The translations under genes were made by a program, and so were the position numbers. DNA of 29,753 nucleotides from a virus. Lineage: Duplodnaviria > Heunggongvirae > Uroviricota > Caudoviricetes. The DNA lies in the IMG/VR virus record IMGVR_UViG_2541047785_000004, positions 1 through 29,753 of that record; one strand, given 5' to 3'. Under the pieces are notes generated by a model. That model saw nothing but the letters and a program-made list of their open reading frames with translations. It did no database searches and was not told the DNA's origin. Below are positions 1 to 18,033 of the stretch, piece after piece. The first letter of the stretch is position 1, and every line of letters begins with the position of its first letter.

Positions 1-60
1 AGTAACGTCAGCCTGCGAAGCAGTGGCTGAAACAGTTGTTGATTGAGTCTCTTTGGTCAT
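1..60 (-). CDS. Nu3: Scaffolding protein Nu3, nested in-frame start inside C (partial, first ~20 codons only)
   Basis: Internal ATG at 58-60 (minus) preceded by AGGAGGG; peptide begins MTKETQSTTVSATASQADVT, as for lambda Nu3 nested in C. Confidence 0.4.
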   Translation of the reverse strand, partial: MTKETQSTTVSATASQADVT

Positions 61-964
61 TCGCCCTCCTGAGAGACGGGATTTACGTGCATCCAGTGCA
101 TCACGCATAACGGTGATCGCATCGGTGCTGTTGACAAGTTCATCAGCCAGTCCGGCATCAATGGCCTCCTGACCGCTGTACACTGCAGCCTCGGTATCCA
201 GCACAGCCTGCACGGACAGGCCGGTATATGCCGACACCTTCTGCGCAAACATCCGGCGGGTTGCATCCATCCGGGACTGCAGTGTCTCCCGGACGTCATC
301 CGGAAGATGGCTGTAGGGGTTGCCATCCACCTTATGGCTGCCGCTGTAAATCAGCGTGATTTCCACGCCCTGTTTCTCCAGCGCAGCACCGTAATTACTG
401 TGAGCCATCATGACGCCGATGGAGCCTGTCCGGGCGGTCTGCGTGACCAGACGCCGGGAGGCGGCGCTGGCAAGCAGCTGCCCTGCACTGCAGTTCATGT
501 CATTGGCCAGCGCCCATACCGGCTTTATGTCACGCACACGGGCGATGATGTCAGCACAGTCAAATGCTCCCGCCACCATCCCGCCGGGCGTGTCCATATC
601 GAGCAGAATGCCGTCCACCATCGGATCGCTGGCAGCCTGTTGCAGACGGGCGATAATGCCGTTGTAACCGGTCATCCCCGAGTACGGCTGCAGCGCCCGC
701 GTCCGGCTGACCAGCGTGCCGGACACCGGCAGCACGGCGATGCCGTTCATGACCTGATAACTGCGGGCCTGTCGTGGTCCGTCATCATCACCGGATAATG
801 CCAGCGTCGCGAGTGCCTCCTGGGCAGTCAGGCTGTCGCCGGACACCGCATCCGTCAGGCGGCTGATCCCAAGCTGGCCTGCAAGCGCACAAAAGAAAAC
901 CCGCGCATAGGCGGGTTCAAGCATCAGCGGCTCATTAAAGGCCATGCTGGCAATATGCGGGAGA

Positions 965-984
<20 letters not shown>
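1..984 (-). CDS. C: Prohead protease / minor capsid protein C (lambda gpC-like, S49 family); GTG start at 984, 3' end runs off the window start
   Basis: Minus-strand translation from 984 reads VTAELRNLPHIASMAFNEPLM... and near the window start ...VLDTEAAVYSGQEAIDAGLADELVNSTDAITVMRDALDARKSRLSGGRMTKETQSTTVSATASQADVT, matching lambda gpC as recalled. Not in the ORF track because it is incomplete. Confidence 0.85.
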
Positions 985-4697
<3,713 letters not shown>

Positions 4698-13758: not shown

Positions 13759-14808
13759 TTATCCGAGTACGCCAGTTGCAAAGGCGTGATCAAGAAAACG
13801 AAAAATTAAATCAACCTGAGACCCATGCTTTTCTTCGAACGCCTGCGGATCTGCATGAAGCTCGTTATGATGTTCCCGGCACAGCGGCAACGTAAAAATA
13901 TCGTGGGCTTTTGTCCCCATTCCGCCCTGACCGTGACCAATCAGGTGATGGGGATCGTCTGCTGGCTTACAACAACATGTACACGGCTGTGTCTTTACCC
14001 AGCGCGTGTATTTCTCATTCACCCAGCGGCGACGTTTAGGCCGCTTCATGAATGATTCCGGTGACTCCGGATCAACGGCAATGCTGACCACCGTCTTTTC
14101 CTGTGGCGGGATTTGTTGCTGGTGGACATGAGGCAACGGCGCAAGATTTTTTGTGCGCTGCTTCAGTATGCTGGTGGCGCTCTGCTCTCCCGGTACGATG
14201 TCACTTTCGCGATACACCGAGTGGATTTTTTCCACACGTAATCCCAGAGAGCGACGTAATACTGCCTCCGGTAGCGCGTCCGCCACCTGATTGCAGACCG
14301 CCCACCAGGATAATTCAGCCAGCGATAATTCCCACTCTTGTGTGCCATTCATTGCGTGACGTATGACGTCAATCATCCAGGCTGCCAGATTCTGCTGAGC
14401 AAGTTGCTCCAGTGAATCAGATGTCTGCTCCCGCAGCTGGTTGTCGCAGTGCCAGCACAACACCATCGCGCCAGTACCGTAACGATGTATGACGGTTTCG
14501 CTGTGATGATAATCGCCGTGTGGCCACTGGCAGGATTTCACGTGACGTAATAGCCAGTCAGACAGTGCGCCAGCACCACCTACAGCACGGATCACCCGCT
14601 CATCGCTGAAAAATGGCAGTAACGATTTGTCTTGCGCCAGCGGCTGGCGAACAGCGGGAACCTCTCCTGATGGCAGCGCCCGCATGTTTTTCGGTTCCGG
14701 CTCCACCAGTACCCGGGTATTGTAAAATACCGGCATGGATTCACGGCCCGGATTAAGGACCACCAGCCCAAGTTCCGGTACCAGAACAGGTCGAAGTAAT
14801 ACCCGCAC
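13759..14808 (-). CDS. DUF968-like (YdfU-like) phage protein with C-terminal Cys/His cluster, 349 aa
   Basis: GTG start with GGAGGT RBS 1 nt after the upstream stop; C-terminal region CTCCCKPADDPHHLIGHGQGGMGTKAHDIFTLPLCREHHNELH resembles an HNH/zinc-binding motif; nin-region position. Confidence 0.7.
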   Translation of the reverse strand: MRVLLRPVLVPELGLVVLNPGRESMPVFYNTRVLVEPEPKNMRALPSGEVPAVRQPLAQDKSLLPFFSDERVIRAVGGAGALSDWLLRHVKSCQWPHGDYHHSETVIHRYGTGAMVLCWHCDNQLREQTSDSLEQLAQQNLAAWMIDVIRHAMNGTQEWELSLAELSWWAVCNQVADALPEAVLRRSLGLRVEKIHSVYRESDIVPGEQSATSILKQRTKNLAPLPHVHQQQIPPQEKTVVSIAVDPESPESFMKRPKRRRWVNEKYTRWVKTQPCTCCCKPADDPHHLIGHGQGGMGTKAHDIFTLPLCREHHNELHADPQAFEEKHGSQVDLIFRFLDHAFATGVLG

Positions 14809-14809
14809 G

Positions 14810-15082
14810 TTACCTCCAGATACGTTGCTGGTATGTGCGGGATGGACGCGGTGGGCGTTCGGAATAAGGGAGCCTGACAGAGATTATCCAGTGACGATAA
14901 TCGAGGCTGAGGGCTTTCTTAATCTCGTATCCTTGTCTGCGGTAGCACTGAATTAGCCACTCGGCCTGTTCTTCAGTGCATGGGTCATGCTGGAACCAGT
15001 CAGATTTGAATGTATGAGAACGCCGCCCGTGCCTGCTGGCAAGGTCGGTATCAGAATTGTGATGTTTGGTATTGTGCGCCAT
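14810..15082 (-). CDS. Hypothetical nin-region protein, 90 aa
   Basis: Complete ORF tightly coupled to the downstream DUF968 gene; basic and His-rich; no recognised motif. Confidence 0.45.
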   Translation of the reverse strand: MAHNTKHHNSDTDLASRHGRRSHTFKSDWFQHDPCTEEQAEWLIQCYRRQGYEIKKALSLDYRHWIISVRLPYSERPPRPSRTYQQRIWR

Positions 15083-15160
15083 CGGTTTTCTCTGCTGGCG
15101 CAGCAGGTGCCAGTTGTTCAGGCTGGCCTGTGGATTGTAAACCAGAATACGTAAAACAAA

Positions 15161-15185
15161 AAACCCGCCGAAGCGGGTTTAGATT
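15161..15185 (-). terminator. Strong rho-independent terminator upstream of the nin-like genes (tR2-like position)
   Basis: Minus-strand RNA AAACCCGCUUCGGCGGGUUU followed by UUUUGUUUU (plus strand 15161-15180 aaacccgccgaagcgggttt). Confidence 0.75.
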
Positions 15186-15306
15186 AGATCATTATGCAAC
15201 TCTACGTTCGGGAGCAACCACAAACAGGAATCGGGAAAGGGTGCCCCTTCCTCGCATATCGCATAACTCCATTGATACAAGCGGAATAACGAAAAATAAT
15301 TTCGCA

Positions 15307-15505
15307 CGGTTTTCCGCATTCCTTACAGATTTTCATTGCCATAACCAGCAAGTCCCTGCATACCTGTATCCCCATACAGGTTGCGATTTGTTGGGAGAAC
15401 CGCTAAACTTGCATCTGTCAAATCCAAGTGTGGCGGTGGGGTTCTCCATCTGCACTGGAAAGTTATCGGACTTTCCATCCTAAGCCCTGTTACAGCAGGG
15501 CTTTT
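15307..15505 (+). ncRNA. Candidate ~200-nt plus-strand small RNA (promoter TTGATA-N17-AATAAT, intrinsic terminator at 15483-15505)
   Basis: No credible ORF; -35 TTGATA 15272-15277, -10 AATAAT 15295-15300; internal hairpins (acctgtat/atacaggt 15356-15380; ggagaacc/ggttctcc about 15393-15458); terminator agccctgttacagcagggcttttttat. Confidence 0.3.
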
Positions 15506-15988
15506 TTATAAAAAGTCAAATGATAGTTGATCCATATAAAATCCTAATTCGCGCAAAACCACCTCGGCAAACAAATCTGCTTGCCATTCAGCATCTTCAA
15601 TTTGCGAAGGTGGTTTATTGGAACTGTGAAATAACGCTCTATGCCCCAACACCAAATGTCCGATTTCATGAAAGAGCACAAATAATGCTTCTCTATCACC
15701 TTTACATGCCAACTCAAATGTATGATTCGGCACACTAATTGTCAGTGTAATTGGATCGTAATGCCCAGATGTCAAATCATATGTAGCTTTAGTCCACGCA
15801 CGATCCTCAACGATATTGAGCGTTATCCCATATTCACTCAACAACTCAAATGCATGGTCTAACCGCTTTTTTCTTTTCAACGTTTTAAGGTCGAAGATCG
15901 CGCTATAGTTAACAGCGCGAGTTGTTATATCAACAATACTCATTGGTGCAACACGATTTCCACGTAATGTGTAAGCTGATTGTTCCAA
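15506..15988 (-). CDS. ImmA/IrrE-family zinc metallopeptidase (HEIGH motif), 160 aa, TTG start
   Basis: FVLFHEIGHLVLGHRALF contains the HExxH zinc-binding motif typical of ImmA/IrrE (COG2856) peptidases; TTG start 6 nt after the HTH gene stop with GAGGG RBS. Confidence 0.8.
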   Translation of the reverse strand: MEQSAYTLRGNRVAPMSIVDITTRAVNYSAIFDLKTLKRKKRLDHAFELLSEYGITLNIVEDRAWTKATYDLTSGHYDPITLTISVPNHTFELACKGDREALFVLFHEIGHLVLGHRALFHSSNKPPSQIEDAEWQADLFAEVVLRELGFYMDQLSFDFL

Positions 15989-15991
15989 CGA

Positions 15992-16351
15992 TTATCCCTC
16001 AACATGATTAATACTTTTCATCAACTCTGCTATTCGCTTTAACTGCTCTGGTGTTAATGGGGATTTAGCAAAACCAGCAACCAACATTTGCTGATTTTGC
16101 GACAATCCATCAAGGGAAACAAACTGATTAGATACATCAGCCAATTCCTGAAGATTATTAATCTCATAACCTCTTTTCAGGAAAAAAGCCTGAATCTCTT
16201 TTACCCATTTTTTGGGGATTTTCTTACTGCCTGTTTCTAAACCGCTCAGAAAAGCTGAAGTTACTCCCAGTTCTTGGGCCATCGTAAGCAATGTGCAGTC
16301 GGTATCTATCCTCGCTTTTCTAACGGCCTTACCGAATTCAGTGAGTGCCAT
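15992..16351 (-). CDS. XRE-family helix-turn-helix transcriptional regulator, 119 aa
   Basis: N-terminal HTH (AVRKARIDTDCTLLTMAQELGVTSAFLSGLETG); GAGGA RBS; co-oriented with and immediately upstream of the ImmA-like gene. Confidence 0.85.
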   Translation of the reverse strand: MALTEFGKAVRKARIDTDCTLLTMAQELGVTSAFLSGLETGSKKIPKKWVKEIQAFFLKRGYEINNLQELADVSNQFVSLDGLSQNQQMLVAGFAKSPLTPEQLKRIAELMKSINHVEG

Positions 16352-16577
16352 AGTTAATTCCTCGATTCGCTATAAGTAACAGGCTGCCTATTTTCGGAGC
16401 ACAACCTGTGATGAAGACTTCATGACTAATAAATTATCATAAAAAATGATTTTGTAAACCATTTTGGTAAATTTATTATCTGAAAGCAAAAAAACGCCAA
16501 AGAGGGTTAAGCGCGGGTGCGTTGAGGATGCCGACACATCAGAGGTGGCGGGAGATTACTCTCCCGCCTGGTCACTC

Positions 16578-16733
16578 TTACTTCTCAGATTCGTAGTCCA
16601 CGAAGACAGCAACCTCCGTCTGGCCGGTTCGGATTCGTACCTCGCAGAGGTCTTTCCTCGTTACCAGTGCCGTCACTATGACGGTTAAACAGATGACGAT
16701 CAGGGCGATTAACATCGCCTTTTGCTGCTTCAT
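16578..16733 (-). CDS. hok: Hok/Gef-family type I toxin (HokD/RelF-like), 51 aa
   Basis: MKQQKAMLIALIVICLTVIVTALVTRKDLCEVRIRTGQTEVAVFVDYESEK: single TM helix plus the conserved LTRK.LCE.R...EVA.F..YE tail of Hok proteins; AAGGAG RBS 9 nt upstream; stable hairpin GGCGGGAG/CTCCCGCC (16547-16568) in the 3' region. Confidence 0.8.
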   Translation of the reverse strand: MKQQKAMLIALIVICLTVIVTALVTRKDLCEVRIRTGQTEVAVFVDYESEK

Positions 16734-17023
16734 AGCCTGCTTCTCCTTGCCTTTCGGCACGTAAGAGGCTAACCTAGATTTGCCGTTCATAGATTGAGCC
16801 TCAGATTAATGTTAAGCGTCTTGCAGGACGCGTAATGTTAACTGGGCTTTTCTTTATCTGCCTTTTGATGTTCATGCCTGAGACAGATAGCCTCAAGCAC
16901 CCGCAGCGATTTTACTTACCCTCCCCTCTAGTTCATTCGATACTACAACTTTATTTTCTTTTCGTTGTCTATATAGTAAATAACATGTAATAAAAGTTAG
17001 TCACTAACAATGGAGAGATGCAT

Positions 17024-17242
17024 ATGCCCACACTTATCGGAAAAGTGCTTCGTCGATACACAAGTGCTGTAGCAACCCATGTTGACACCCATCTTGAGCA
17101 AACGACAAAATATCGTCTTACAGTTGATGCGAACGGTAATGCCACCCTGAACATAGAAAACCCAGAAGTTCAAGCAGACATCATCAAGAAAATGAAACAA
17201 TTGCGAAAACTACATAACCGTACAGACAAGGAAGTTGCTTAA
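17024..17242 (+). CDS. Small soluble hypothetical protein (72 aa), first gene of a coupled two-gene cassette
   Basis: GGAGAG 6 nt upstream of the ATG at 17024; stop overlaps the downstream start (TAATG at 17240-17244). Confidence 0.55.
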   Translation: MPTLIGKVLRRYTSAVATHVDTHLEQTTKYRLTVDANGNATLNIENPEVQADIIKKMKQLRKLHNRTDKEVA

Positions 17243-18033
17243 TGGGTCCATTGATTATAACTGTGATTCTCGTGTGTGGTTTTTGGTACACCGAGAATCA
17301 CTATCAATCGAGAATTCATCACGCAAGAACAAATGGGTGGTCATCCTATTTCTACGTTGCAATGCATGGGTGTCGTTTTGTTGCTCAAGGATTTCTTTTG
17401 ACGCTCGGGATCTACATGCTTTTCTGGCTACTGAACTCTATCCCACACATAATCAATATTTTCCGAGACAAACCTATAGAATGGCATTTTTTTAATTGGT
17501 TACTTGAAACCAAAGTGATGGAATTACCACTTTTTGCTGTCATCACCATCATTTTCGCTTGTTGTATTGCTTACTCTGAAGGGGTGGATGCGCGAAAAGA
17601 AATGGAGAATGAAGAAGCGCGGCAAAAGGCTTACAGGGAGATGGCATCAAAAGATTCACTAGAAAACCTATTGATCCAAGCCATTGACACAGAGATGCTG
17701 ATTTTTGTAACACTAAAATCCAGAAAAGTATATATCGGGTATGTGGCAGCACCACGTGTTGAATTCCACAACAGTGCGCATCTTGAGATCATACCATTCA
17801 TTAGTGGTTACAGAGATAAGGATTCACTACGCTACATAGAACAACACCGATACTATGATCTCTATCTATCCAAAGAAATCACATTTGAGTCCGAACCATT
17901 AAATTTACAACATTTTCGACACGTCATTCCTATCGAACAAATTGAAGCGATCTCGCTCTTTGATGAAAGCACGTACAGCGATTTTGAAAGATTTTCCGAG
18001 CCAATGCCTGACACAAAGCAATTACCAGTATAG
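17242..18033 (+). CDS. Membrane protein with three N-terminal TM helices and a ~150-aa cytoplasmic domain of unknown function, 263 aa
   Basis: Hydrophobic segments PLIITVILVCGFWY, FLLTLGIYMLFWLLNSI, LPLFAVITIIFACCIAY, then a charged soluble domain; low GC; opposite strand to the flanking early-operon genes. Confidence 0.7.
   Translation: MGPLIITVILVCGFWYTENHYQSRIHHARTNGWSSYFYVAMHGCRFVAQGFLLTLGIYMLFWLLNSIPHIINIFRDKPIEWHFFNWLLETKVMELPLFAVITIIFACCIAYSEGVDARKEMENEEARQKAYREMASKDSLENLLIQAIDTEMLIFVTLKSRKVYIGYVAAPRVEFHNSAHLEIIPFISGYRDKDSLRYIEQHRYYDLYLSKEITFESEPLNLQHFRHVIPIEQIEAISLFDESTYSDFERFSEPMPDTKQLPV

Follow-up and report, generated by a model that had tools for sequence, protein, structure and literature searches.

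Within the window (the whole 29,753-nt stretch of DNA that was analysed), the region ~16487–16937 is, to judge from its sequence, a complete and apparently intact hok/mok/sok type I toxin-antitoxin module of the hokD/hokW subfamily. An Rfam scan of the whole window returned a single match, to RF01794 (sok), at 16728–16902 (−), with 95.6 bits (gathering threshold 59) and E = 1.3e-20; it spans model positions 1–157 of 157 and is untruncated. Since this match falls on the hok mRNA strand, the model represents the leader of hok, with Sok as its antisense RNA. A consensus scan for promoters and terminators (generic sigma-70; 16380–17020) called none of the hok or sok signals. The hok and sok promoters were instead placed using homology to phage 933W together with published −10 mutagenesis, and short elements were located by an exact-motif search of the window sequence. 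The features of the locus are as follows, with the evidence for each:

16936–16931 (−): hok −35, aTGAac, a poor match with a 16-nt spacer, lying beyond the conserved module (sequence)
16909–16914 (−): hok −10, TAAAAT, 6 nt upstream of the inferred +1 (read from the sequence)
16490–16902 (−): full-length hok mRNA, ~400–413 nt, with an inferred 5′ end and an approximate 3′ end (RF01794 position 1 = 16902)
16891–16902 (−): tac (translational activator), GGGUGCUUGAGG, at the mRNA 5′ end (pairing with fbi)
16797–16848 (−): leader hairpin in which the ucb C-run pairs with the mok Shine-Dalgarno sequence; also the Sok target (fold)
16847–16844 (−): ucb C-run, GCCC (alignment with relatives)
16799–16802 (−): mok Shine-Dalgarno sequence, GAGG, 8 nt 5′ of the mok ATG at 16790 (sequence)
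16578–16790 (−): mok ORF, 70 aa, in frame with hok and ending at the same stop codon (ORF; mokW match)
16747–16743 (−): hok Shine-Dalgarno sequence, AGGAG, for the hok ATG at 16733 (motif search)
16578–16733 (−): hok toxin ORF, 51 aa, MKQQKAMLIALIVICLTVIVTALVTRKDLCEVRIRTGQTEVAVFVDYESEK (Pfam, PHROG, identity to HokW)
16590–16596 (−): heptamer CUACGAA at the Tyr47 codon (TAC, 16595–16593), with A 16594 as a candidate site of A-to-I editing by TadA
16547–16568 (−): stable, 9-bp, GC-rich 3′ hairpin (−19.7 kcal/mol, z = −4.87)
16515–16527 (−): fbi (fold-back inhibition), CCUCAACGCACCC, complementary to tac (motif, fold)
16487–16510 (−): weak or degenerate terminator, a run of seven T (~16487–16498) after a poor stem (not called by the scan)
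16747–16775 (+): Sok promoter, −35 TTGCCT (16747–16752), 17-nt spacer, −10 TAACCT (16770–16775) (identity to 933W)
~16782–16855 (+): Sok antisense RNA, ~70 nt (transferred by alignment from the sokW misc_RNA of 933W)

The 51-aa product matches Pfam family PF01848 (HOK_GEF) over profile positions 1–42 of 42 (79.8 bits against a cut-off of 22; E = 1.1e-22) and PHROG 251, ‘MokW-like host killing’ (E = 9.8e-33). It is identical to HokW of phage 933W at 51 of 51 positions and to K-12 HokD at 47 of 51. [quoted passage not shown] That reading had also noted an in-frame, Mok-like extension of 19 codons starting at 16790, and this too holds: the extension completes the 70-aa mok ORF and corresponds to the annotated mokW of 933W. 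An overlapping mok frame is thus present upstream of hok with a Shine-Dalgarno sequence of its own, whose GAGG is kept in six of six aligned loci, and mok and hok would, by analogy, be translationally coupled. The hok coding sequence differs from that of 933W at four positions, all of them synonymous.

On the opposite strand, the Sok promoter equals the sokW promoter of 933W base for base in the pairwise alignment, which places the annotated sokW on window positions 16782–16852 (+). With primers YO-421/422, Takada et al. changed TAGGTTAG to CCGGCTCG on the hok strand, a position that corresponds to the Sok-strand −10 TAACCT, and the construct without a functional Sok −10 had lost its antitoxin activity (PMC8621323). 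The predicted Sok RNA consists of a 9-nt single-stranded 5′ tail across the mok ATG and a long hairpin followed by CUUUUCUUU (the U-tail); it folds with −27.4 kcal/mol (z = −3.79), and none of 200 shuffled sequences was as stable. At the level of sequence, a cis-encoded Sok antisense to the mok start is accordingly present, with its promoter within the mok–hok region. The sequence-only reading had raised the possibility of a Sok-like antisense RNA on the plus strand around 16730–16800. The Rfam match, promoter and hairpin agree with the RNA and its strand, but not with its position, as the guessed span covers the promoter and the first ~20 nt while the body of the RNA (~16782–16855) lies farther upstream of mok, ~50 nt off. 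In the same way, the ~230 bp upstream of the gene had been taken for non-coding DNA. The gap from the mok start to the next real gene (17018–17242, +) does measure 227 bp, but it is occupied by the hok leader and the Sok gene, that is, by the regulatory half of the module, and the interval 16547–16800 to which the locus had been assigned comprises only ~60% of the unit at ~16487–16937. Alignment to hok/sok loci, proposed at that stage as a check, together with the motif search and the folds, located mok, the Sok promoter, tac, fbi and ucb.

The recognition end of Sok deserves separate mention. In the 5′ tail (16782–16793, +) the window reads GCCGUUCAUAGA and 933W reads GUUCAGCAUGGA, so that six of the first 12 nucleotides differ, whereas the Sok hairpin and promoter are nearly identical between the two. 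This divergence from SokW suggests that co-resident hok/sok copies (median 2–3 per genome) may be insulated from one another through their Sok 5′ tails.

Turning to the toxin mRNA, homology to relatives starts at ~16920, so the −35 lies outside the conserved block; the failure of the scan to call the hok promoter is consistent with hok promoters being weak. The 413-nt hok mRNA folds with −153.4 kcal/mol (z = −5.44 against shuffles). Within it, tac and fbi form 12 pairs with one bulge (duplex −21.5 kcal/mol), both in the minimum free energy (MFE) structure and in the ensemble (tac P(unpaired) = 0.01), and the duplex recurs, with its spacing unchanged, in each of the eight loci that were compared, including an intact hokC locus and an R1-like locus on a Klebsiella IncFII plasmid. 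Inside the hokD/hokW subfamily all 12 pairs are invariant and show no covariation, hence this comparison is uninformative; the divergent, R1-like Klebsiella plasmid locus was required to see a co-varying pair, as there GGCGCUUGAGGCU stands with AGCCUGAAGCGCC and both sides have changed. In the nascent RNA, or when the 3′ end is cut before fbi, tac refolds as a local 5′ hairpin, which fits the metastable-hairpin idea (PMC9841398).

The leader hairpin is predicted to join the ucb C-run to the mok Shine-Dalgarno sequence (G101–C59 and G103/G104–C58/C57 in the fold), and 17 of its 19 pairs are invariant across six loci. The C-run reads GCCC here and GCCCC in five relatives, a 1-nt deletion that costs only the outermost (terminal) G–C pair of the open-conformation tac-stem. 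This tac-stem belongs to the Rfam consensus that was matched, whereas the MFE structure of the 3′-truncated RNA contains the local tac hairpin and not the published tac–ucb ‘open’ structure. Because the published switch is a refolding after 3′ processing and not equilibrium folding, we did not count this miss against it. The 3′ hairpin shows compensatory changes in three pairs among six loci; for the 5′ and 3′ hairpins together, five pairs are changed on both sides, and 96.5% of cells are paired, a share that falls to 34–43% if the partner is slid. By analogy with R1 (PMC9841398), the 3′ hairpin would be the expected protective 3′ end of the processed, translatable mRNA. The terminator hairpin that follows is degraded, with CCCUCUUUGGCG in the window versus CCCGCUUCGGCGGG in related loci, and reaches only −6.7 kcal/mol with an 11-nt loop, compared with −12.8 kcal/mol and a UUCG tetraloop in one relative (L005); 933W is also without a canonical terminator. 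The ucb deletion, the degenerate terminator and the non-conserved −35 could each lower or alter expression, and the deletion and terminator decay might attenuate the expression of Hok or let transcription read through into the HTH and ImmA genes downstream. None of the three interrupts an ORF or a defining element.

The genes of the window include a Rac-type immunity region (racR, ydaS/T), dicB, the Q antiterminator, lysis genes, terminase and portal, and its sequence is 99.8–99.99% identical to a prophage beside yccA in E. coli UR21/11-869, except for an IS2 and the morphogenesis region. The host element is a Rac-like lambdoid E. coli prophage, in keeping with the prophage or phage location first assumed, and the locus lies in its early-right (‘nin’) region. 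There hok shares its strand with the early-right genes and with the late ones, and lies between the replication genes and DUF968–RusA–Q. The downstream order of hok, variable gene(s) and DUF968–RusA–Q is common to the window, K-12 Qin and most other sampled prophages and phages; in one prophage (L012) DUF1367/DUF1364/DUF1133 genes follow hok instead, and a plasmid-borne hok copy (L007) has unrelated flanks. The hok/sok locus also occurs in 110 phage records.

Across lambdoid prophages, the interval from hok to DUF968–RusA–Q (~14800–16480 in the window; also L004–L006, L011 and L013–L016) acts as a variable cargo slot, with contents such as rem, a YgiW-like gene, a GIY-YIG gene, a hypothetical gene or pairs of HTH and ImmA/IrrE genes. 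Such a pair lies directly 3′ of hok in the window (15506–16351, −), where a 119-aa HTH protein and a 160-aa ImmA/IrrE metallopeptidase with a HEIGH motif weakly resemble the CapH/CapP regulators (PADLOC E = 0.002 and 0.0004, respectively), with no obvious effector gene nearby. In strain CRE287 and phage Tritos this slot is taken by other ImmA/IrrE pairs. On the other side of the locus, two genes (74 and 263 aa; 17018–18033, +) are encoded divergently from hok, against the direction of the operon around them; neither gave a Pfam or PADLOC match, and the only PHROGs that they hit (32583; 3630/23864) have no known function. Beside these two genes, the near-identical prophage of NZ_OU342919.1 (L002) has an IS2 that is absent from the window, and in the same prophage a deletion (30801–30806) has left the terminase large subunit truncated and fused to a tail gene. 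In the window (1–3153), by contrast, the 643-aa terminase ORF is intact and an ORF of portal size (533 aa) is present, and the prophage of the window may therefore be less decayed and possibly inducible.

Neither relB nor relE precedes hok, as the sequence-only reading had stated: a tblastn search with K-12 RelB and RelE found neither in the whole 29.7-kb window (best E = 9.5 and 5.3, respectively), and the locus thus lacks the relB and relE genes that lie directly upstream of hokD in relBEF. That reading had, however, treated their absence as an anomaly, and here the genome counts point the other way. Of 5426 complete E. coli genomes, at least 3807 contain a full-locus match (over at least 80% of the 511-nt query, a coverage reachable only when the leader is present) and 1166 contain the K-12 relE–hokD junction, which makes the complete form ~3 times commoner. 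At more sensitive settings some hok-like locus was detected in 5425 of the 5426 genomes, with a median of three per genome, and the exact window variant (at least 99% identity) occurs in only 4 of 5401 matching E. coli records. Furthermore, the ancestral hokD ORF has been described as ~70 codons long and cut to 51 by relBE integration, with K-12 in the derived state (PMC6379469). Given these counts and this report, lack of relBE is usual rather than anomalous: it is the common, ancestral state, and relBEF of K-12 is the rearranged, derived layout.

The homology of K-12 hokD to the window is confined to 16483–16747 (91% DNA identity by blastn and alignment), a span that runs from the hok Shine-Dalgarno sequence through fbi to the T-run. 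K-12 hokD lacks the hok promoter, tac, ucb, the mok start, the Sok gene, and the Sok −10 together with most of its −35. In 7 kb of K-12 Qin no leftover hok leader was found 5′ of relB, which argues for replacement or deletion there and not for a simple insertion. K-12 should consequently be used with caution, as it is a poor reference for the normal layout of a hokD locus. The correct label for the present locus is hok/mok/sok (hokW-type), with a Sok RNA at ~16782–16855 (+), and not an orphan relF.

This hok/sok reading rests on the elements, their complementarity, homology and synteny; transcription, processing, toxicity and a role in the present prophage would be expected by analogy. Element-by-element conservation with the R1 and hokW systems suggests that the mechanism follows the R1 regulatory model (PMC9841398). 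A weak promoter would yield a ~400-nt hok mRNA, in which closure of tac on fbi and the hold of ucb on the mok ribosome-binding site would leave the full-length RNA neither translated nor bound by Sok. Slow 3′ trimming to the hairpin at 16568–16547 would then remove fbi and let the leader refold, after which Mok translation, carrying ribosomes into hok, would become possible. The short-lived, ~70-nt Sok would pair with the mok start region first, and RNase III would cut the duplex. If the supply of Sok stopped or dropped, Hok would be made, enter the inner membrane and kill or lyse the cell. The most likely role would be faster lysis and phage release after induction, as for the protein-identical HokW of Sp5, and a second role, not exclusive of the first, may be an addiction-type stabilisation of the prophage. 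Provided that the prophage can be induced, a contribution of the module to lysis timing is probable, as in Sp5; hokW lies near the right genome end in 933W and Sp5 and not in the nin region, so this induction behaviour may not transfer. As a whole (complete module, R1/hokW-like mechanism and role in lysis), we consider this the best explanation of the locus, with a probability of about 0.85.

R1 hok/sok has been reported to act against T4, and the sequence-only reading had suggested a comparable part for the present copy. Its main function would then be abortive infection of superinfecting lytic phages, whose shut-off of host transcription would deplete Sok and free Hok. An unstable antitoxin RNA offers a compatible mechanism, hok genes are ~four-fold enriched in prophages (bioRxiv 10.1101/2025.08.07.668861), and the adjoining slot holds variable cargo, including the HTH and ImmA/IrrE pairs weakly like CapH/CapP. 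We nevertheless regard this as unlikely to be the main function, given that PADLOC returned no model match for the window Hok, that hok was not enriched near defence systems in the same survey (bioRxiv 10.1101/2025.08.07.668861), and that the sole experiment on the identical protein indicates a role in the prophage's own lysis (PMC8621323).

Decay, in expression or in sequence, would be another way to read the locus. It might be a physiologically silent or attenuated passenger despite its intact sequence, like the K-12 chromosomal hok loci; hokA, hokB and hokC gave no post-segregational killing, as Pedersen & Gerdes are cited in a statement of bioRxiv 10.1101/2025.08.07.668861. The weak promoter with a −35 outside the conserved block, the window-specific GCCC for GCCCC in ucb, the terminator of −6.7 rather than −12.8 kcal/mol and the rarity of the exact variant (the 4 of 5401 records above) would all suit a passenger. 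Against this, both ORFs, both Shine-Dalgarno sites, the Sok promoter, tac, fbi and the 3′ hairpin are intact, the ucb deletion takes only the outermost G–C pair of the tac-stem, and hokW–sokW of 933W is functional although it also lacks a canonical terminator (PMC8621323), which leaves a silent passenger distinctly improbable. The sequence-only reading had named a degenerate hok pseudogene as the outcome of alignment that would overturn it, and K-12 hokD is indeed such a remnant of rearrangement on its 5′ side. For the window, a pseudogene left from rearrangement is extremely improbable and was rejected at the sequence level: nothing breaks the 51- or the 70-codon ORF, HokW, whose activity as a toxin has been demonstrated, has the same protein sequence, the Rfam match is full-length and untruncated, and every coding difference from 933W is synonymous. 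We favour a part in lysis on induction, to which prophage addiction and abortive infection are alternatives that do not exclude it.

Two further ideas concern how such a module might be tuned. The CUACGAA heptamer has the same sequence as the tRNA-Arg(ACG) anticodon loop of E. coli, and is predicted to form a 7-nt loop on a 4-bp stem in a hairpin no stabler than shuffled sequences (z = −0.27). K-12 hokD, whose heptamer reads UUACGAA instead, is edited by TadA at the aligned position, which converts Tyr to Cys (PMC5630033). Editing of the candidate A 16594 would likewise recode Tyr47 to Cys and, given the exact tRNA-Arg(ACG) heptaloop, HokW-type transcripts may be a better TadA substrate than K-12 hokD, with editing that might be much more efficient. 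In addition, as the locus has the orientation of the early-right operon and ends in a weak terminator, read-through on induction could swamp or occlude the Sok promoter; if true, this would explain mechanistically why SokW is lost in a RecA-dependent way. The joint proposal, a toxin potency gated by editing (through a Cys30–Cys47 disulfide) combined with read-through acting on the Sok promoter, is tentative, and we hold it to be rather doubtful.

In conclusion, a hokW/sokW-type module in its usual prophage slot is an already known, ordinary element; loci of this type have been annotated in phage genomes since 933W and have been characterised experimentally, and the significance of the present copy beyond its correct annotation is little. 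The closest system is hokW/mokW/sokW of 933W and Sp5 (AF125520; PMC8621323), with the identical 51-aa Hok and an in-frame mok that likewise has 70 codons. The Sok promoter, hok Shine-Dalgarno sequence, tac, fbi and 3′ hairpin of 933W are the same as in the window, and the mean column identity of the pairwise DNA alignment is 92%. The two differ in the N-terminus of Mok (MNGKSRL... in the window, MLNTCRL... in 933W), in the ucb C-run, which is one C shorter in the window, and in position: the window copy lies in the nin region between the replication genes and Q, whereas that of 933W lies at the right end beside a YgiW-like gene. A hok–YgiW pair also occupies the nin slot of an O111 prophage. 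HokW is toxic and is neutralised by SokW expressed from its own promoter, an antitoxin activity that depends in part on RNase III and Hfq; northern blots show both RNAs (PMC8621323). After mitomycin C, SokW is lost and membrane HokW appears in a RecA-dependent manner, and deletion of hokW–sokW delays lysis by ~40 minutes and halves phage release (PMC8621323).

The second relative, K-12 hokD (relF) in Qin, shares 47 of 51 toxin residues and the same downstream synteny to ydfU (DUF968) and Q, but there relB–relE lie on the upstream side and are co-transcribed with hokD, in contrast to the full module without relBE in the window. More distant are R1 hok/sok (parB) and its IncF relatives, which have the same architecture and logic, with tac/fbi, ucb, mok-coupled translation, Sok directed against the mok start and a protective 3′ hairpin. 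The mok frame of R1 differs from its hok frame, unlike the in-frame mok of the window. At the DNA level R1 and the window share only short alignable stretches (47 nt at the Sok promoter and hok Shine-Dalgarno sequence), and HokW and R1 Hok are 44% identical (PMC8621323). R1 hok/sok is a plasmid stabilisation element, whereas the copy in the window is prophage cargo.
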